NCBI GenBank assembly: GCA_025937815.1
Contig: JAICQP010000001.1
Location: 3,891-67,890, forward strand
DNA from: Gemmatimonadota bacterium
GTDB lineage: Bacteria > Gemmatimonadota > Gemmatimonadetes > JACCXV01 > JAHWKZ01
DNA: 64,000 nucleotides
Direction of reading: 5' to 3'
A model generated the notes under the pieces. The model was not told the DNA's origin. It did no database searches and saw only the letters and a list, made by a program, of their open reading frames with translations. Made by a program: the position numbers and the translations under genes. Every line of letters begins with the position of its first letter. Positions within the stretch are counted from its first letter, which is position 1. Shown one piece after another: positions 4,733 through 43,715 of the stretch.

Positions 4733-4763
4733 TCCATCCGCCGCCGCTCCCCGCGGCGGCCGT

Positions 4764-4840
<77 letters not shown>

Positions 4841-5063
4841 CCTTCAGTGCCGAGCTCGCAAAACGATAGAACTCGGCAACCAGAGCCGGAAGGGGATGAG
4901 TGTGCCAGGGCGCGATTCACCTCCAGCTGCCAGCGGTTGCGGTTTACGATAGCGCTTGATATGAATTACCAATGATTGGCGTACCCTGGAGTACGATCGT
5001 ACCGACCGCTCATGCTAACGTTCGGTTCGCGGGGTGGAAGCACCCGTAACAGCGGAGGAGTGA

Positions 5064-6299
5064 ATGATCGCCGAGATGATGCACACTGCGGCTCGCGCGC
5101 TTGACAAGCGTATCGGTATTGCTCCATTGGCGATCATCGCCATGGCCGCGGGAACCGCACTGGTTGGGTGCGAGGAGCGGGACTCCCAGGAAACCGAGCC
5201 CGCGCCGCCAGACACCGTAACGGCGGAGGAGACAACGCCTGAGCTCCTCGCCGAAGGCCAGCGCATCTTCCGCTTCGACACGTTCGGTGACGAGAAATTC
5301 TGGACCGACACGCTCCACATGCATGAAGTCGTCGAGCAGAACGTAGATCCGACGACGGCGCTGGCGGTCGGACTCAAGGTGGACGCGGATGTCCTGCCTC
5401 CGGGAATCCTCGAGCAGGTCGACCTCACGAGCCCGGCCACGACGGTTGCACTGCTCAAGATGAACGCCGTTGTGGGCATCCAAGCCACCGTCGACGAGAA
5501 TAACCACATCACACGGCTGGGCGTCACCTGCGCGCTTTGTCACTCTACCGTCGACAACTCTGTCATGCCCGGCATCGGGCGTCGCATGGACGGCTGGCCT
5601 AACCGGGACCTCAACGTCGGGGCCATCATCGCGCTCTCGCCGGCCGTTACCGCGGAGCAGAAGGCGGTCTACGAGTCGTGGGGGCCCGGCAAGTACGACC
5701 CGCGCTTCAACATGGACGGAGAGAGCACCCCGCTCGTTCTCCCACCCGCCTACGGCTTGGCTGAGGTCGAGAACGAAACGTACACGGCGGAGGGGCCGAT
5801 CTCGTATTGGAACGCCTACGTCGCCGTCACCCAGATGCATGGCCAAGGCAATTTCTCCGACGAACGACTCGGGATCGATGTCCAGCAGTCGCCGGACCTG
5901 GTCACCTCCAAGCTTCCCGCGTTGCGAGCTTACCAACACAGCTTGCCTGCTCCGTCACCACCAGCCGGAAGCTTCGACACCGCTGCCGCCGAGCGCGGCC
6001 GCGCGCTGTTCGACCGGACATGCGCCACCTGCCACGTGGGCGGCACGGGGACCGACAACAACAGCGGCACGCTGCACGCGCCGGCCGAAACCGGCGTCGA
6101 TGGAGCCTACGCTGCGCGCACAGCAAACAGGGCGTACCGCACAACCCCTTTGCGAGGGCTGTGGCAGCACCCGCCGTACTTCCACGACGGCAGTGGGGCC
6201 ACTCTCACGGACGTCGTGGCGCACTACACGCGCGTGCTCACCCTGGGACTGACGACCGAGGAGCAGCAGGATCTCGTCGAGTTTTTGAAGTCGCTCTGA
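5064..6299 (+). CDS. dihaem cytochrome c peroxidase (CCP/MauG) family lipoprotein
   Basis: Lipobox LVGC; two CXXCH motifs (CALCH, CATCH) and C-terminal hallmark WQHPPYFHDGSGATL typical of CCP/MauG second domain. Confidence 0.6.
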   Translation: MIAEMMHTAARALDKRIGIAPLAIIAMAAGTALVGCEERDSQETEPAPPDTVTAEETTPELLAEGQRIFRFDTFGDEKFWTDTLHMHEVVEQNVDPTTALAVGLKVDADVLPPGILEQVDLTSPATTVALLKMNAVVGIQATVDENNHITRLGVTCALCHSTVDNSVMPGIGRRMDGWPNRDLNVGAIIALSPAVTAEQKAVYESWGPGKYDPRFNMDGESTPLVLPPAYGLAEVENETYTAEGPISYWNAYVAVTQMHGQGNFSDERLGIDVQQSPDLVTSKLPALRAYQHSLPAPSPPAGSFDTAAAERGRALFDRTCATCHVGGTGTDNNSGTLHAPAETGVDGAYAARTANRAYRTTPLRGLWQHPPYFHDGSGATLTDVVAHYTRVLTLGLTTEEQQDLVEFLKSL

Positions 6300-8903: not shown

Positions 8904-10772
8904 ATGACGACGCCCGATTGCATCCGGAACTTGGCGATTATCGCCCACATCGACCACGGGAAGACCACGCTCATCGACGCGGTCTTCAAGGCGGCCCACG
9001 TCTTCCGGGACGGGGCCGAGGTGACCGAGCGCGTCATGGACTCGGGCGATCTCGAGCGCGAGCGGGGGATCACGATCCGCTCCAAGCACTGCACGGTGGA
9101 GTGGGAAGGGCACCGGATCAACATCGTGGATACTCCCGGCCACGCGGACTTCAGCGGGGAGGTCGAGCGGGTGCTCTCCATGGTCGACGGCGCGCTCCTC
9201 CTGGTGGACGCCAACGAGGGCCCGATGCCACAGACCCGCTACGTCCTCATGCGGGCGCTGAAGCGCGGCCTCAGGCCGATCGTGCTCCTCAACAAGGTCG
9301 ACCGGCCGAACGCCGATCCGGAGAAGGCCCTTCACGAGACCTTCGACCTGTTCCTCGAGCTCGGGGCGAGCGACGAGCAGGCGGATTTTCCGGTCCTCTA
9401 CGGTTCCGGTCTGGCGGGATGGTTCGTTCGCGACCTGGACAAGGACGCGCGCGACGGGATGGCGCCTCTGTTCGAGACGATCGTCCAGAGTGTCCCGGCC
9501 CCGGACGCCGTGATCGATGCCCCGTTCCGGATGCAGGTCTCGACCCTCGCCTGGAGCGATTACCTGGGCCGGATCGGCTGCGGTCGCGTGCTCCAGGGCG
9601 TGCACCGGCGGGGGGAGCAACTCATCCGCCGTACGTCACGCTGGATCGACCGGGAGGCGGGGTCATGGGAGATCACCGGGCGCGATCCCGCGACCTCCAG
9701 CCGTCTCTGGGTGACGCGCGGGATCGAGCGCGAAGAGGTCGACGAGGTCACGGCGGGCGACATCGTCTGGATTGCGGGCTTCGAGGAGCTGGGGGTCGGC
9801 GATACGATCGGGGCGCCAGATGCGCCGGACGAGGCCCTCCCGCCGCTCGAGATCGAGGAGCCGACGGTCTCGATGCTGTTCCTGGTGAACAGCGGTCCGT
9901 TCGCGGGTAGCGACGGGAAGGCTGTGACCCTGCGCCAGATCCGCGATCGGCTTGCGCGCGAGGAGCGCGTGAACGTGGCGCTCCGGGTCGAGGACATCGG
10001 GCGCTCTGACGGCGTCAAGGTGTCCGGACGCGGGGAGCTCCATCTCGCGATCCTGATCGAGGAGATGCGGCGCGAGGGGATGGAGCTCTGCGTCTCCCGA
10101 CCCGAGGTCATCCTTCACGAAGGGAAGGATGGCTCGGTCGAAGAGCCTCTGGAACAGCTCGTGATCCACGTGCCCGAGGAGCAGCAGGGCGCGGTATTCG
10201 AGAAGCTCGCCCGGCGGAAGGCGGAGCTCACCGCCGTGCACAACGCGGGCACGGGTCTCGTGCGCCTCGAGTACGTGATCCCGACCCGCGGACTGATCGG
10301 CTACCGGAGCGAGTTCCTGACCGACACTCGGGGACTCGGGATCATGACCTCGCGGGTCGTGGGATACGGTCCTTGGCGCGGCGAGGTCGAGCACCGCGAG
10401 CGGGGCGCCATGGTGAGCCTCGACATGGGTCCCGCGACCTCGTATGCGCTCGAGAACCTGCAGCAGCGGGGCACGCTGTTCGTGGGCCCGATGGAGCGCG
10501 TGTACGCGGGCATGATCGTGGGGGAGAGCGCTCGGCCCGGCGATCTGCCGTGCAATCCGACCAAGCGCAAGCAGGTGACGAATCACCGCTCTGCCACGCG
10601 CGAGGTCGACACCGGCCTCAAGGCCGCCCGGCGTCAGACCCTCGACGCCGCGCTCGAATGGATCGCCGAAGACGAGCTGGTCGAGGTGACGCCCGAGTCC
10701 GTGCGTGTACGGAAAGCCGTTCTCGACGCGACCGAGCGCAAGCGTATCGAGAGACGCCTGGCCGCGCTCTAA
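8904..10772 (+). CDS. typA: translational GTPase TypA/BipA
   Basis: N-terminus [30 protein letters not shown] GTPase motifs and TypA-like length (622 aa). Confidence 0.9.
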
Positions 10773-10788
10773 CGTATCTTTCCGGCGC

Positions 10789-10866
10789 GCCCCGGTAGCT
10801 CAGTTGGACTAGAGCAGCGGCCTTCTAAGCCGCGGGTCGGGGGTTCGAATCCTCCCCGGGGCGCCA
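10789..10866 (+). tRNA. tRNA-Arg (anticodon TCT)
   Basis: Acceptor GCCCCGG/CCGGGGC, D-arm GCTC-AGTTGGACTA-GAGC, anticodon loop CTTCTAA, T-loop TTCGAAT, CCA encoded. Confidence 0.8.
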
Positions 10867-10899
10867 TGCATGGCCGGGCGGTAGATTCGCATCTCACGT

Positions 10900-10977
10900 G
10901 GTGGGCGTAGCTCAGCTGGTTAGAGCACCAGGTTGTGGCCCTGGGGGTCGGGGGTTCGAGTCCCCTCGCTCACCCCA
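10900..10977 (+). tRNA. tRNA-His (anticodon GTG)
   Basis: Extra 5' G (G-1), anticodon loop TTGTGGC, T-loop TTCGAGT, CCA encoded. Confidence 0.8.
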
Positions 10978-11086
10978 CCTTCGCCAAGGCGGCCGGCGAG
11001 CCAGCCGGCCGCTTCGCGCGTTTGTGCCGGAGAACGCGCGCCGATATATTCCGCACGCCGCATCTCGCGGTCCCACCCCGGCTCGT

Positions 11087-11162
<76 letters not shown>

Positions 11163-11370
11163 GCTTCCAGGAACAGACGATTGCCACGGTCCGAAATGGA
11201 TTTGTGGTAAATGCCTGATCGGCTGTTGGCTGAATCAAGGTGGCAATACGGGGGCCAAAGAGTGGTAATGCGGTTCCAAAGAAATGCCCGCGGAGCTATT
11301 GAGGATGGATCCCCCGCCAGGGTAGAGTCTGACATCTGTAAAGAAGAGGACTTTCATGGAAGGAGGGTCT

Positions 11371-11526
11371 GTGGAGAAGAAGCCTTACGCACCTCCGAGG
11401 GTCTTTGATCTCGGCACGGTCAGAGATCTCACTCATTCCACTGCCGAGGAAGACAAGTGCAGCGGGAGCGGTGACATCCGCACCGTGCAACAGATCAGCC
11501 CGAACTACAGCTTCGACTGCCCGTAA
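11371..11526 (+). CDS. small Cys-containing peptide, paralog 1 (candidate RiPP precursor / secreted peptide)
   Basis: 51 codons from GTG 11371 (GGAAGGAGGG RBS); an in-frame ATG at 11356 would add 5 aa. Product (M)EKKPYAPPRVFDLGTVRDLTHSTAEEDKCSGSGDIRTVQQISPNYSFDCP; three near-identical paralogs nearby; terminator hairpin downstream. Confidence 0.65.
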   Translation: MEKKPYAPPRVFDLGTVRDLTHSTAEEDKCSGSGDIRTVQQISPNYSFDCP

Positions 11527-11560
11527 GGCAAGACGAACGGCGCTTTGGAAATGATGACAT

Positions 11561-11594
11561 GAGCCGGGGCGAAAGTCCCGGCTCAGTTATTTCC
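11561..11594 (+). terminator. rho-independent terminator after peptide paralog 1
   Basis: GAGCCGGGGC-GAAAGT-CCCGGCTC hairpin followed by AGTTATTTCC. Confidence 0.6.
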
Positions 11595-11741
11595 TGTCCT
11601 CACTGACGGCGCCCACCTGAGCGGCAATTTTTTAAACGTTCGAGTTAGCCACCTTACAAAGACATACGATTTTCATACCCGTAATCGCCCCCGATATATG
11701 GATGATTTCCTAGGGTATGGTACACTCAAGGAACTGAGGTA

Positions 11742-11781
11742 CCACGGCGTGGAAGCAGGCTTCCCACGGCGTGGAAGCAGG
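11742..11781 (+). promoter_or_regulatory. tandem 18-bp direct repeat, each with 11-bp palindrome CCACGGCGTGG (candidate operator), downstream of a TGgTACACT extended -10-like element
   Basis: CCACGGCGTGGAAGCAGG at 11742-11759 and 11764-11781 (22-bp register), ~40 nt upstream of paralog 2 start; -10-like ATGGTACACTC at ~11716-11726. Confidence 0.45.
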
Positions 11782-11822
11782 AGGACCGGTAAGCAAACCA
11801 TCAACTCGACGGAAGGCTGGCA

Positions 11823-11978
11823 ATGGAGAAGAAGCAGTACGTGACCCCCAAGGTTCTTGAACTTGGTACCGTGAAACAGCTCACCGAAACCACTCCGGAA
11901 GCCGACAAGTGTAGCGGCAGCGGCGACGTGCGAACCGTCCAGGAGCTGAGCCCCAACTACAGCACCGACTGCCCGTAA
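11823..11978 (+). CDS. small Cys-containing peptide, paralog 2
   Basis: ATG start with GGAAGG RBS; product MEKKQYVTPKVLELGTVKQLTETTPEADKCSGSGDVRTVQELSPNYSTDCP (51 aa). Confidence 0.65.
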   Translation: MEKKQYVTPKVLELGTVKQLTETTPEADKCSGSGDVRTVQELSPNYSTDCP

Positions 11979-12009
11979 TCCGGGCCGAACTCCCTATGTT
12001 GGATGGATG

Positions 12010-12043
12010 GAGCCGGAACGAAAGTTCCGGCTCTTCCATTTCC
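12010..12043 (+). terminator. rho-independent terminator after paralog 2
   Basis: GAGCCGGAAC-GAAA-GTTCCGGCTC hairpin then TTCCATTTCC. Confidence 0.6.
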
Positions 12044-12290
12044 AGGCCCCGTCCTTCTCCATGACGATCATGACCCACATGCTGCGGAAACTTCTACAAC
12101 CTTCAGGAAGCCATGGCATCTGTCTTGACGTAGGCGGAAGGCGGTCGCGAACGGCACCTCGCGGCTCTCGCGCGGCCGAATTCTCCACGAACTTCCGATG
12201 GGTGTTGGCCGCCTTTAGGTCTCTAGTGCATCATGATTCCGGTTCTTCGACGGCTGCGGCCATCCCCGTGGCAATCCGGCGATTGGTGAC

Positions 12291-12328
12291 TTGAAAGCGA
12301 AACGAGCCGGGAGATTTCTCCCGGCTCG
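12291..12328 (-). terminator. rho-independent terminator after paralog 3 (minus strand)
   Basis: CGAGCCGGG-AGAAATCT-CCCGGCTCG hairpin followed on minus strand by TTTCGCTTTCAA. Confidence 0.55.
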
Positions 12329-12359
12329 TTCGGATACCGTTCCTGTGTGCAGTGTCGGG

Positions 12360-12515
12360 CTACGGGCAGTCGGTGCTGTAGTTGGGGCTCAGCTCCTGAA
12401 CCGTCCGCACGTCTCCGCTGCCGCTGCACTTGTCGTTCTCCGGCGTCGTCTCGGTGAGCTCCTTGACGGAGCCCAGCTCCACGACCTTCGGGGTTTCGTA
12501 CGGCTTCCTGCTCAT
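12360..12515 (-). CDS. small Cys-containing peptide, paralog 3
   Basis: C-terminal 51 codons of six-frame ORF 12360..12668; ATG with GGAGGAG RBS; product MSRKPYETPKVVELGSVKELTETTPENDKCSGSGDVRTVQELSPNYSTDCP. Confidence 0.65.
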   Translation of the reverse strand: MSRKPYETPKVVELGSVKELTETTPENDKCSGSGDVRTVQELSPNYSTDCP

Positions 12516-12677
12516 CCGCTCCTCCTCACCTCGGGACCTCGCGTTACTTGCCGTGGAACCACTGTGCCAGAGTGTACCATGAGCAGCGGACGCTCTCAAT
12601 GTCTCCGGGGCCGTTTCGGGTATGGAAATCGTCTGATTCGATGAGCGAATGCGAAACGCCGAGGCCAAAGTGAGGCG

Positions 12678-12713
12678 CCCGAAACGACGGAGCCGGGGCG
12701 TTGGCCCCGGCTC
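12678..12713 (-). terminator. rho-independent terminator after paralog 4 (minus strand)
   Basis: GAGCCGGGGC-CAACG-CCCCGGCTC hairpin followed on minus strand by CGTCGTTTCGGG. Confidence 0.5.
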
Positions 12714-12743
12714 AGGTCGTCATCCGGACTGCGTGCTCTTCGC

Positions 12744-12899
12744 CTACGGGCAGTCCGTGCTATAGTTCGGGCTTATCTGTTGCACGGTGCGGACGTCACC
12801 GCTGCCGCTGCACTTGTCTTCCTCGGCCGTCGTCCGGGTGAGCTCTCTCACCTTGCCGAGGTCGAATACCCTGGGAGCTACGTAAGGCTTCCTGCTCAT
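12744..12899 (-). CDS. small Cys-containing peptide, paralog 4
   Basis: Terminal 51 codons of long shadow ORF 12744..14093; ATG with GGGAGGGG RBS; product MSRKPYVAPRVFDLGKVRELTRTTAEEDKCSGSGDVRTVQQISPNYSTDCP. Confidence 0.65.
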   Translation of the reverse strand: MSRKPYVAPRVFDLGKVRELTRTTAEEDKCSGSGDVRTVQQISPNYSTDCP

Positions 12900-13103
12900 C
12901 ACCACCCCTCCCTTCTGGGATCTGGAGTATCGTCGGACCCCAGTGTACGGGACGCCGGTAGGGAACATCAATGGCATGGAGGTATGGAAAACTATTGAAG
13001 CTGGCGCGTTCCTTGTACGGCATGAGACAAATGACCGAAGATTGCCCGGCGATCGACCGCATGGAGTCGCAGTTGCACGCCAGCCCGCGTAGATTCGGCT
13101 CCG

Positions 13104-14087
13104 ATGAGCGAGGTGGGGGAGGCACGGTCGGGGCAGGTGGCGGGAGCGGAGGTCGCGACCCGGGCGGGATTCGTGGCGCTCGTGGGGCGGCCCAACGCGG
13201 GCAAGTCCACGCTCCTGAACGCCCTGGTTGGCGAGCATCTGGCAGCCGTCAGCCACAAGGCCCAGACGACACGGCACCGGATCCCCGGGTTCCTCACCGA
13301 CGACTCCACCCAGTACGTCTTCGTCGACACTCCCGGCTTTCTCGATCCCGCCTACCCGCTGCAGCAGAGCATGCTCGACACCGCCCTTTCCGCGCTGGAG
13401 GGGGTCGATGTCGTGTGCTGGCTGGTCGACCACGACGAGCCGTCCGAGCGTGAGGAGGAGCTGCTGCGCGACCTGGCGGGGCGCCGACTGAACGGCGGTC
13501 GCGCGTCCCGAAGCACGGCGGGAGATACTCTGCCGCTGATCCTGCTCCTGACGAAGAGCGACCAGGTGCCGGTCGCGAAGCTCGATGCTCGCGAGCGGAC
13601 GTGGGGAAAGCTGGATGTCTGGGCGGGCAGTTTCCGGCTGAGCGCCGTGACGAGAGAGGGGCTCCCGGAGCTCCTCGCCGGTCTGCGCGAGCGGCTCCCC
13701 GAGCAGCCGTTTTTCTACGACCCCGAGGACCTCACGGACCTGAACCTGCGCTTCATCGCGGGCGAGATGGTGCGGGAGGCTTGCTACGAAGAGCTGGGCG
13801 CCGAGCTTCCGTACAGCGTCCATGTCGAGGTAACGGACTGGCGTGAGGCCGCTGGCGAAGGGGACAAGACCCTGATCCGCGCAACCGTGTACGTGGAGCG
13901 CGAGAGCCAGAAGGGAATCGTGATCGGGGCGGGCGGAAAGAAGCTCTCGGATATCGGTCGCCGGTCCCGGGCCTCGATCGAGGCGCTCATCGGGGGGCCG
14001 GTGTTCCTCGAGCTTCGAGTCAAGGTCCGCCCGAAATGGTCGCGGCGCGACCGCGACCTCCAGCACTTTGGTTACAAACGCAAGTAA
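13104..14087 (+). CDS. era: GTPase Era
   Basis: GFVALVGRPNAGKSTLLNAL, DTPG, TKSD GTPase motifs plus C-terminal KH-domain region; start may be one of two nearby in-frame GTGs. Confidence 0.85.
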   Translation: MSEVGEARSGQVAGAEVATRAGFVALVGRPNAGKSTLLNALVGEHLAAVSHKAQTTRHRIPGFLTDDSTQYVFVDTPGFLDPAYPLQQSMLDTALSALEGVDVVCWLVDHDEPSEREEELLRDLAGRRLNGGRASRSTAGDTLPLILLLTKSDQVPVAKLDARERTWGKLDVWAGSFRLSAVTREGLPELLAGLRERLPEQPFFYDPEDLTDLNLRFIAGEMVREACYEELGAELPYSVHVEVTDWREAAGEGDKTLIRATVYVERESQKGIVIGAGGKKLSDIGRRSRASIEALIGGPVFLELRVKVRPKWSRRDRDLQHFGYKRK

Positions 14088-14111: not shown

Positions 14112-14279
14112 ATGGCTTTGGACAAGGAGCTTCTGGAGATACTGGCGTGCCCGAAGTGCAAGGGCGACCTGACCTACAAGGAGAAGGAGCAGGTGCTGGA
14201 ATGCCCGGCGTGTCGCCTCCGGTACCCCATCAAGGACGACATTCCGATCATGCTGATCGATGAGGCGGAATCGTTTTGA
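14112..14279 (+). CDS. Trm112-family small zinc-ribbon-like protein (UPF0434)
   Basis: 55-aa product MALDKELLEILACPKCKGDL...LECPACRLRYPIKDDIPIMLIDEAESF; AAGGAG RBS at 14101. Confidence 0.7.
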   Translation: MALDKELLEILACPKCKGDLTYKEKEQVLECPACRLRYPIKDDIPIMLIDEAESF

Positions 14280-42730: not shown

Positions 42731-43699
42731 TTGATCACGGTCACGCGATTCGATCCGGGCTCCCCGGCTCGAGGCCATCCGGACCTGGCGGCTTCCGGCT
42801 GGACCCGCGACTCCGCGGCCACCCTCTGGATCGACCTGGAGGCGCCGACCGCAGACGAGCTCCGGCTCCTCGAGGACCCGTTCGCCTTCCATCCGCTGGC
42901 CATCGAGGACTGCCTCACGCCCGAGCACCAGCCGAAGATCGAAGACTTCGGGCCGTACCTGTTCCTCATCTTTCGCGGCGTGGATCTCGACCCTCCTGGC
43001 GAGCGCTTCGAGACGATCAAGCTGGCCGCGTTTCTGGGCCCCAACTACCTGATCACGTACCACCGCCGGCCGATGCGCAGCGTGGCGGCCGTGCTGACCA
43101 AGTACGCCCACGACGAAAAGGGCGATCTCTTCCGCGGCGTGGACTATCTGCTGTACGAGATCCTGGACCATCTGATCGAGTTCTACTTCCCGGTGCTCGA
43201 GAGGATCGAGCAGGAAATCGAAGTCGTCGAAGAACAGATCTTCACCGCCGACGACGAAAACACCCTGGACGCGATCCTGGGCCTCAAGCGCAGGGTGATG
43301 GAGATCAAGCGAGCGCTGACTCCGCACCGCGAGCTCTTCGGCCGGATCGCGCGCAACGAGTTCGAGGAGATCACTCCTCAGACCGTCGTGTTCTACCGCG
43401 ACCTCTACGACTCGACCTATCGGCTGGCCGAGGTGGCCGACTCGTATCGTGACGTCCTCAGCGGCACGCTGGACGCCCACATATCGATGATCAGCCACCG
43501 GTTGAACGAGGTCATGAAGGTGCTGACGATATTCGCGACCATCATCCTGCCATTGACCTTCATCGTGGGCGTGTACGGGATGAACTTCGACTACATGCCC
43601 GAGCTCCACTGGCGCTACGGCTATTTCATCCTCTGGGGGATCATGCTGGCGGTCACCGGAGGCATGCTGATCTACTTCCGCAGGCGGAGGTGGATATGA
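42731..43699 (+). CDS. corA: magnesium/cobalt transporter CorA
   Basis: YGMNF (GMN) motif before final TM helices; CorA-like cytoplasmic domain. Confidence 0.85.
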   Translation: MITVTRFDPGSPARGHPDLAASGWTRDSAATLWIDLEAPTADELRLLEDPFAFHPLAIEDCLTPEHQPKIEDFGPYLFLIFRGVDLDPPGERFETIKLAAFLGPNYLITYHRRPMRSVAAVLTKYAHDEKGDLFRGVDYLLYEILDHLIEFYFPVLERIEQEIEVVEEQIFTADDENTLDAILGLKRRVMEIKRALTPHRELFGRIARNEFEEITPQTVVFYRDLYDSTYRLAEVADSYRDVLSGTLDAHISMISHRLNEVMKVLTIFATIILPLTFIVGVYGMNFDYMPELHWRYGYFILWGIMLAVTGGMLIYFRRRRWI

Positions 43700-43715
43700 G
43701 TCCGTCGCCGCGGCC

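Follow-up and report, generated by a model that had tools for sequence, protein, structure and literature searches.

Four lasso-type precursor cassettes between tRNA-Lys and era: a probable satellite array of a biosynthetic cluster elsewhere in a Gemmatimonadota genome

In the genome of a Gemmatimonadota bacterium, the spacer between the gene for tRNA-Lys(CTT) and era contains four paralogous 51-codon genes, here named P1 to P4, which probably (we would put it at roughly 80%) form a satellite array, that is, four stand-alone precursor cassettes of a lasso-type RiPP (a peptide made by the ribosome and modified after translation) whose biosynthetic cluster lies elsewhere in the same genome. The DNA analysed, hereafter the window, is a stretch of 64,000 nucleotides (nt) from contig JAICQP010000001.1 of GenBank assembly GCA_025937815.1 (positions 3,891 to 67,890 of the forward strand), in which this spacer, or island, occupies positions 11163-13103 (1941 nt). 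An earlier look at the same DNA, made from its letters alone (the sequence-only reading), had delimited the island as 11163-12743, which is right for its start but not for its end, since the fourth peptide gene (12744-12899) and its promoter are thereby left outside. The features of the locus, from left to right, are the following.

10789-10866: tRNA-Arg, first of the tRNA-Arg/His/Lys cluster (ARAGORN)
10901-10977: tRNA-His (ARAGORN)
11087-11162, plus strand: tRNA-Lys(CTT), left boundary of the island (ARAGORN; Rfam tRNA, 70 bits)
11299-11328, plus strand: promoter-like site of P1, TTGAGG, 18-nt spacer, TAGAGT (consensus match, cassette alignment)
11371-11526, plus strand: P1, precursor paralogue of type A, (V/M)EKKPYAPPRVFDLGTVRDLTHSTAEEDKCSGSGDIRTVQQISPNYSFDCP (list of open reading frames)
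11560-11585, plus strand: terminator hairpin of P1, GAGCCGGGGCGAAAGTCCCGGCTC, with T-rich tail (terminator scan; fold -25.9 kcal/mol)
11670-11726, plus strand: promoter region of P2, with box TTTTCATACC at 11670-11679 and extended -10 TGgTACACT at 11718-11726 (box search, alignment)
11742-11781, plus strand: two exact copies of the 18-nt CCACGGCGTGGAAGCAGG, 22 nt from start to start, in the 5' untranslated region of P2 (repeat family D5)
11823-11978, plus strand: P2, precursor paralogue of type B, MEKKQYVTPKVLELGTVKQLTETTPEADKCSGSGDVRTVQELSPNYSTDCP (list of open reading frames)
12010-12033, plus strand: terminator hairpin of P2, GAGCCGGAACGAAAGTTCCGGCTC (repeat family D3; fold -25.9 kcal/mol)
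12304-12327, minus strand: terminator hairpin of P3, GAGCCGGGAGAAATCTCCCGGCTC (inverted repeats I6 and I7; fold -27.8 kcal/mol)
12360-12515, minus strand: P3, precursor paralogue of type B, MSRKPYETPKVVELGSVKELTETTPENDKCSGSGDVRTVQELSPNYSTDCP
12571-12628, minus strand: promoter of P3, with box TTTCCATACC at 12619-12628 and TTGAGA, 17-nt spacer, TGgTACACT at 12571-12599 (promoter scan 9/12 + TG, box search, alignment)
12690-12713, minus strand: terminator hairpin of P4, GAGCCGGGGCCAACGCCCCGGCTC (repeat families D3 and I5; fold -30.6 kcal/mol)
12744-12899, minus strand: P4, precursor paralogue of type A, MSRKPYVAPRVFDLGKVRELTRTTAEEDKCSGSGDVRTVQQISPNYSTDCP, divergent from era
12942-12990, minus strand: promoter of P4, with box TTTCCATACC at 12981-12990, TTGATG at 12966-12971, 18-nt spacer and TACACT at 12942-12947 (sequence, box search, alignment)
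13104-14087, plus strand: era (GTPase with KH domain), right boundary of the island (Pfam MMR_HSR1 and KH_2, precomputed calls)

In front of each open reading frame (ORF) lie a ribosome-binding site and a sigma-70-like promoter, predicted from consensus matches (TTGAnn, a spacer of 17-18 nt, then TA(C/G)ACT or TAGAGT), and behind it comes a hairpin of the form GAGCCGG....CCGGCTC, with a folding energy of -26 to -31 kcal/mol and a T-rich tail. As predicted, each cassette is a full small transcription unit, composed of promoter, ribosome-binding site, 51-codon ORF and terminator. Upstream of the -35 element of P2, P3 and P4 lies the TTTCCATACC box, which was found nowhere else in the window. P1 starts with GTG, with a GGAGG 6 nt upstream, and an in-frame ATG at 11356 is used as its start in the gene calls of metagenome-assembled genomes (MAGs). 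Within each CCACGGCGTGGAAGCAGG unit of the P2 tandem repeat there is a palindrome, CCACGGCGTGG. A search of 10700-13300 against Rfam (E up to 1) returned the three tRNAs and otherwise sub-threshold noise.

The sequence-only reading had also stated that the island holds no ORF longer than about 60 codons, which is not so for mechanical ORFs (those over 60 codons that overlap the region measure 95, 117, 102, 109 and 449 residues) but agrees with what gene callers find, that is, inside the island of some 20 MAG contigs, the four 51-codon peptide genes only. The ORFs of 102 and 449 residues are upstream extensions of P3 and P4, and five competing ORFs (95, 117, 80, 109 and 72 residues) do not stay open in L040, a sister species whose orthologous island has stops or frame changes in them.

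The order of the genes is a nested palindrome, A+ B+ / B- A-, in which P1 pairs with P4 (84% identity over 155 nt; 28/156 nt differ) and P2 with P3 (82% over 152 nt; 30/156 nt differ), a pairing that fits one inverted duplication of a two-gene tandem. Local amplification with inversion, as the sequence-only reading had proposed, is thus borne out, and a more distant relative has the minus-strand pair only. The inverted repeats were also considered as a possible invertible switch; the gene order is the same in all of about 20 assemblies, and nothing supports such a switch.

What had drawn attention to the island in the first place, its composition, is real. Its GC content is 0.583 against 0.694 for the whole window (0.580 for the narrower range 11163-12743), and both sliding-window GC and tetranucleotide checks single it out. 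Over all segments of 1941 nt in the 64 kb (mean GC 0.694, standard deviation 0.034; minimum 0.579, for the segment that starts at 11094), 0.14% have a GC content below that of the island, and the tetranucleotide L1 distance between the island and the window profile (0.518) is the highest of all (mean 0.231, standard deviation 0.055). Since the non-coding part of the island has a GC content of 0.574, against 0.658 for a pool of 15 other nearby intergenic stretches, non-coding status accounts for part of the dip only. The dip goes with the cassette: the precursor cassette of the home cluster, described below, has a GC content of 0.609 within a locus of 0.683, and the islands of relatives have 0.586 and 0.607. 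Four cassettes in a row therefore give a dip of 1.9 kb, and because the dip is also seen in the home cluster, composition is no sign of foreign origin. It is the cassette that is low in GC, with its promoter, untranslated region, terminator and an ORF rich in Lys, Glu, Thr, Ser and Asn. Elsewhere in the window, the only other spots with a 500-nt GC below 0.60 are at 43082-43708 and 4853-5355. Just past era, a small Trm112-like gene (14112-14279) has a GC content of 0.571 with a normal GC3 of 0.84, which means that unusual amino-acid composition lowers the GC of short genes here too.

The absence of mobility genes and attachment sites, which had also been noticed early on, was confirmed in the Pfam calls of the flanks, by a repeat search and by a search with the tRNA 3' end. 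No integrase, transposase or insertion sequence is present within 10 kb on either side (precomputed Pfam calls), where the neighbours are housekeeping genes (BipA, era, Trm112, RNase R and purFLQSC), and the 3' end of tRNA-Lys (as 25-nt and 18-nt queries, with up to 3 mismatches) matches only the tRNA itself in the region.

The peptides have a leader of lasso type. Three of them score above the cut-off (19 bits) of NF033521, the NCBIfam model lasso_leader_L3 for 'lasso RiPP family leader peptide-containing protein' (P1 19.5, P3 26.8 and P4 20.6 bits), and none of the four has a match in Pfam. The four ORFs, like 32 members of the family, all have residues Y6, P9, V/L11, G15 and T21 at the same spacing. 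Lasso leaders are recognised, through binding by the RiPP recognition element, by a motif of the form YxxPxLxxxGxxxxxTx with Thr at position -2, and the Y6-P9-V11-G15-T21 spacing is, by comparison of the sequences, that of this motif.

A profile search of 1.84 billion representatives gave 38 relatives. The close family, which at the level of species representatives is found in Gemmatimonadota soil MAGs, consists of 16 clusters at an identity of at least 74%, and its C-terminal part, TTPExDKCSGSGDVRTVQELSPNYSxDCP, is nearly invariant; the exact P2 protein is present on 18 contigs. In an alignment of 32 members, P9, G15, T21, K29, G32, D35 and C50 are invariant and the linker between T21 and K29 varies in length by 0-8 residues. 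Two invariant cysteines stand out, C30, which adjoins the K-C-x-G-S-x-D motif, and C50, which is penultimate. If T21 is placed at -2, the core starts at T23 and reads T/S-T-P/A-E-x-D-K-C-S-G-S-G-D. For this core, NCBIfam and Pfam have no model, and the motif KCSGSGD/KCGGSGD is absent from the literature searched. The same profile search also matched longer proteins with several tandem lasso-leader-like segments (PYEPPxLxxLGxxxxLT), namely P0163 (199 residues), P0173, P0177 and P0161 (2029 residues, with 14 matched stretches).

If the leaders are of lasso type, where are the enzymes? In more distant Gemmatimonadota (L024, L025, L026, L028 and six JGI contigs), a single homologue of the peptides lies within a conserved cluster, whose gene order is B2 (Transglut_core3), B1 (PqqD), a small hydrophobic ORF, three to four alkaline-phosphatase-superfamily genes, the cyclase C (on the opposite strand), a LuxR/GerE regulator, C', the precursor, an ABC exporter and a protein of about 280 residues with weak similarity to HprK-related kinases (cluster loci were read at L030 1-13130, L028 893-14261 and L025 2200-9306). 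The cyclase scores about 620 bits on NF033535 (cut-off 525; 619 bits in the MAGs that also carry the island), B2 scores 74 bits on NF033537 (cut-off 33) in the syntenic L028 cluster, and the PqqD protein is the best match to a lasso chaperone. The additional C', encoded directly upstream of the precursor, consists of an Asn-synthase domain only (368-385 residues), with an SGGRDSS PP-loop and no glutaminase domain, and its PP-loop-only family has more than 1200 database matches at E <= 1e-10.

Island and cluster occur together. Assembly GCA_025937245.1 has both, with the island on contig JAICRT010000004.1 and the cluster on contig JAICRT010000009.1, as do seven more assemblies (ERZ27364347, ERZ27366208, ERZ27365337, ERZ27365968, ERZ27364689, ERZ27364399 and GCA_025922805.1), and in the six ENA assemblies among them the island and cluster contigs are similar in coverage. 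The cluster thus contributes a fifth precursor, (MKSHTNPEGVVM)NKKPYEAPKVFELGTVKELTETTPENDKCSGSGDVRTVQELSPNYSTDCP, whose core is exactly that of P3 (17/156 nt differ, with the cluster copy of L033). Relative to the cluster core, one residue is changed in P2, four in P4 and seven in P1, which makes four distinct cores in five precursor genes for a single B1/B2/C/ABC set. The resemblance extends to the regulatory parts, since the box, the -35 and -10 elements, the ribosome-binding site and the GAGCCGGGGCGAAAGTCCCGGCTC hairpin are common to the cluster precursor and the island cassettes. A hairpin identical to that of P1 follows the cluster precursor in L025, L027, L028 and L033, and within the 20-kb cluster locus the box was found solely in front of the precursor. 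Chromosomal members of the family occur in two contexts only, between C' and the ABC exporter or between tRNA-Lys and era. Of the five paralogues, it is the fifth alone that sits next to its enzymes; the island genes are flanked by housekeeping genes, and a tblastn search of the window with the cyclase, C', the regulator, the kinase-like protein and the ABC exporter gave generic ABC similarity only.

The history of the island can be read in related genomes. A sister species, L040/L041 (amino-acid identity 92% for era and 97% for BipA), has the same four genes in the same place. Between the window and L040, nucleotide identity is 92-98% in the ORFs (P1 92%, P2 94%, P3 96% and P4 98%), against 71-81% in the spacers and 90% in era. 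Codon changes in the four ORFs amount to 17 synonymous and 10 non-synonymous (7 and 1 in the core), and all replacements but one fall in the leader, as illustrated by P1, in which all three amino-acid changes are in the leader, and by P2, with 7 synonymous and 2 leader changes. Judging from these substitutions, the four ORFs are under purifying selection, which is strongest in the core. The stretch with the CCACGGCGTGGAAGCAGG repeat is 98% identical in L040, far above the spacers overall, and this tandem repeat may serve as a binding site for a protein or as an RNA element.

Further away, L023 (era 83%) has only two cassettes in the tRNA-Lys/era spacer, each on the minus strand, of which the era-proximal one is of type A like P4 and the other of type B like P3. 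In L043 (BipA 93%), a P1-like plus-strand cassette is preceded by an extra 1.9 kb or so, an insertion that shows the site after tRNA-Lys to be plastic. This extra stretch (L043 2448-4318) has a GC content of 0.54-0.60 and two ORFs with no Pfam match, encoding proteins of 160 residues (with a signal peptide) and 132 residues. In two JGI fragments the cassette adjoins tRNA-Lys (L056) or era (L058). The island is bordered by tRNA-Lys also in L040, L023, L043 and L056, and by era orthologues in L040, L023 and L058, the era-proximal P4 position being common to the type A cassette of L023 and to L058. Every relative found has cassettes at the locus, with one, two or four of them visible (four in L040/L041, two in L023; L043, L056 and L058 are partial views), and no empty tRNA-Lys/era site was seen among them. 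For the more distant Gemmatimonadota MAGs, in which the era loci were not readable, the cluster copy is all that is found. Comparison of these loci indicates that the island is old at its site in this group, that its copy number varies and that the palindrome of four copies was in place before the two closest species separated.

The core variants seem to co-vary by lineage, as DVRTVQEL occurs in the cluster copy of L033 (2817-2972) and in P2 and P3 of the window, and DTHTAQVL in the cluster copy of L027 (1854-2009) and in the type B satellite of L023 (region 4734-5294). If L023 and L027, whose sample accessions are neighbouring but different, are of one species, such co-variation would fit gene conversion or a co-evolution of satellites and cluster.

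An unexpected twist is that the family also occurs on two phage-like elements. On a 58-kb contig (L021, Logan SRR22868755), a homologue 74% identical to P3 (P0015, at 10001-10156) lies among genes for ParB-like and replication-initiation proteins, RusA, a DNA-polymerase exonuclease subunit and a large terminase, and has a ribosome-binding site but neither the promoter nor the terminator of the cassette. A second homologue (P0014, L061 1039-1188, Logan SRR22868761) lies in a series of short ORFs that overlap one another, with an HTH_3 gene among them. The two elements are unrelated, and both homologues keep the leader motif and lack the promoter box and terminator of the cassette, which makes these phages look like recipients rather than donors. 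No lasso enzymes are within reach on either contig, and a scan of IMG/VR with the peptide alignment gave no relative.

The explanation that we favour is that the island is a satellite array of the lasso-type cluster. The cluster precursor cassette would have been duplicated into the tRNA-Lys/era spacer, where the copies would have diverged into types A and B before the two-gene tandem was duplicated in inverted orientation to give A+ B+ / B- A-. The satellites would be co-transcribed with the cluster precursor, perhaps via the LuxR-type regulator of the cluster acting at the TTTCCATACC box, and B1 would bind their leaders, B2 would cut them and C would cyclise the peptides, all in trans and with C' and the tailoring enzymes taking part, before export. 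The genome would profit through a higher precursor dosage and three additional core variants. Several points weigh against this explanation. (i) The window has no cyclase, B or C' gene, the link between island and cluster consists of MAG binning and similar coverage rather than one contiguous sequence, and processing in trans is an inference. (ii) P2 falls below the NF033521 cut-off (13.6 against 19 bits). (iii) The promoter-like site of P1 comes without the TTTCCATACC box, and a promoter scan of the region gave 1 site against 0.6 expected. (iv) Positions 7-9 of the core are K, C and S, with acids at 4, 6 and 13, and in the absence of Asp/Glu at 7-9 a canonical lasso ring cannot be assigned.

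Might the satellites instead have left the RiPP pathway, to become small unmodified or disulfide-only peptides that serve a separate purpose, for instance as signals or regulators? Their separation from the cluster, in the midst of housekeeping genes, the single enzyme-less copies on phage-like elements, the near-invariance of the whole 29-residue C-terminal part (unlike many RiPP cores) and the difficulty with the ring would all agree with it. We nevertheless consider it unlikely, for Y6, P9, G15 and T21 are kept in every copy, including those of phages, which would be needless in peptides that are not processed, and the identity of the P3 and cluster cores, the promoter box held in common with the cluster copy and the lack of a visible signal peptide in P1-P4 argue in the same direction. 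That the four ORFs are decaying duplicates in what is simply a long spacer deserves very little credence: duplicated precursors could indeed be redundant, and P1 has a GTG start and no box, but all four are intact in two species and more conserved than era (92-98% against 90%) and the spacers, and changes in the core are 7 synonymous to 1 non-synonymous.

The sequence-only reading itself, that is, a foreign islet integrated site-specifically at the tRNA cluster and amplified later, has become very improbable. It can point to a position directly 3' of tRNA-Lys, to the strongest compositional outlier in the window, to the different stretch of lower GC with two ORFs that follows the same tRNA-Lys in L043 and to the homologues on phage-like elements. 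The neighbourhood offers neither mobility genes nor a copy of the tRNA-Lys 3' end, however, and the phage copies come without the cassette promoter and terminator. The cassettes, box and terminator included, are closest to the precursor of the genome's own cluster, where the same GC dip is seen. In all relatives found, moreover, the island is at this very position, which is what the sequence-only reading had itself named as evidence for an ancestral island.

How the peptides of the satellite array would be cyclised is a separate matter. Every candidate for Thr(-2) and every window of 7-9 residues ending in Asp/Glu was tried as a canonical ring, and none is conserved across the family. The constant seven-residue spacing between K and D, the paired cysteines and the extra Asn-synthetase-like enzyme would suggest, speculatively, a non-canonical macrocycle. 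A tentative and broader possibility, to which we give less than even odds by some distance, is that these peptides belong to an uncharacterised lasso-like RiPP subclass, defined by an invariant K-C-x-G-S-x-D, a distal Cys, a post-leader linker of variable length and the presence of two enzymes of the Asn-synthetase type in the cluster. In that case the macrocycle would not join the N-terminus to an Asp/Glu at 7-9 but would be, for example, a seven-residue Lys29-Asp35 lactam or a large disulfide-locked ring, and precursors would be supplied in trans both from the satellite array and from phages that exploit the maturation enzymes of their host.

Comparison with known systems helps to place the array. 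Caulosegnins, from Caulobacter segnis, are lasso peptides for which several precursor genes are served by one enzyme set, and the likeness is obvious (paralogous precursors, a conserved leader, slightly different cores and one B1/B2/C/ABC set). Here, however, four of the five precursors are outside the cluster, at a housekeeping locus and each with a promoter and a terminator of its own, the core lacks Asp/Glu at 7-9, and the cluster has a C' without glutaminase domain, an HprK-like protein and three alkaline-phosphatase-superfamily genes. Prochlorosins, whose many lanthipeptide precursor genes are scattered genome-wide and served by one ProcM, are similar in that precursors act in trans and keep the leader for a distant enzyme, but belong to another RiPP class; the cores here are near-invariant rather than hypervariable and the copies are gathered in one inverted-duplication array. 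In BI-32169, a class III lasso peptide, a ring Cys is bonded to the C-terminal Cys, which recalls the invariant C30 and C50, although the ring residues of the present family, known from sequences alone, are not canonically assignable. As for integrase-mediated tRNA-linked islands, the array has in common with them a location directly 3' of a tRNA gene and a deviant composition, but not the integrase, the attachment repeat or the mobility genes, and its locus is conserved in relatives. A literature search on orphan or distal lasso precursors, and on clusters that combine lasso, HPr-kinase and sulfatase genes, gave nothing specific.

We know of no characterised RiPP from Gemmatimonadota, and a literature search on RiPPs of this phylum returned genome-mining surveys only. 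Within this phylum, the present locus has several implications. The compositional island beside a tRNA cluster is home-made here rather than horizontally acquired, which removes a false lead. Lasso-type precursors can lie far from their enzymes, to the point that four of five genes would be invisible to RiPP mining centred on clusters. The family has a core that is outside the canonical lasso ring rule, a cluster with a second Asn-synthetase-like enzyme and enzyme-less copies in phages. If these phage copies are matured in trans, this would be a rare case of a virus feeding substrate into a natural-product pathway of its host.

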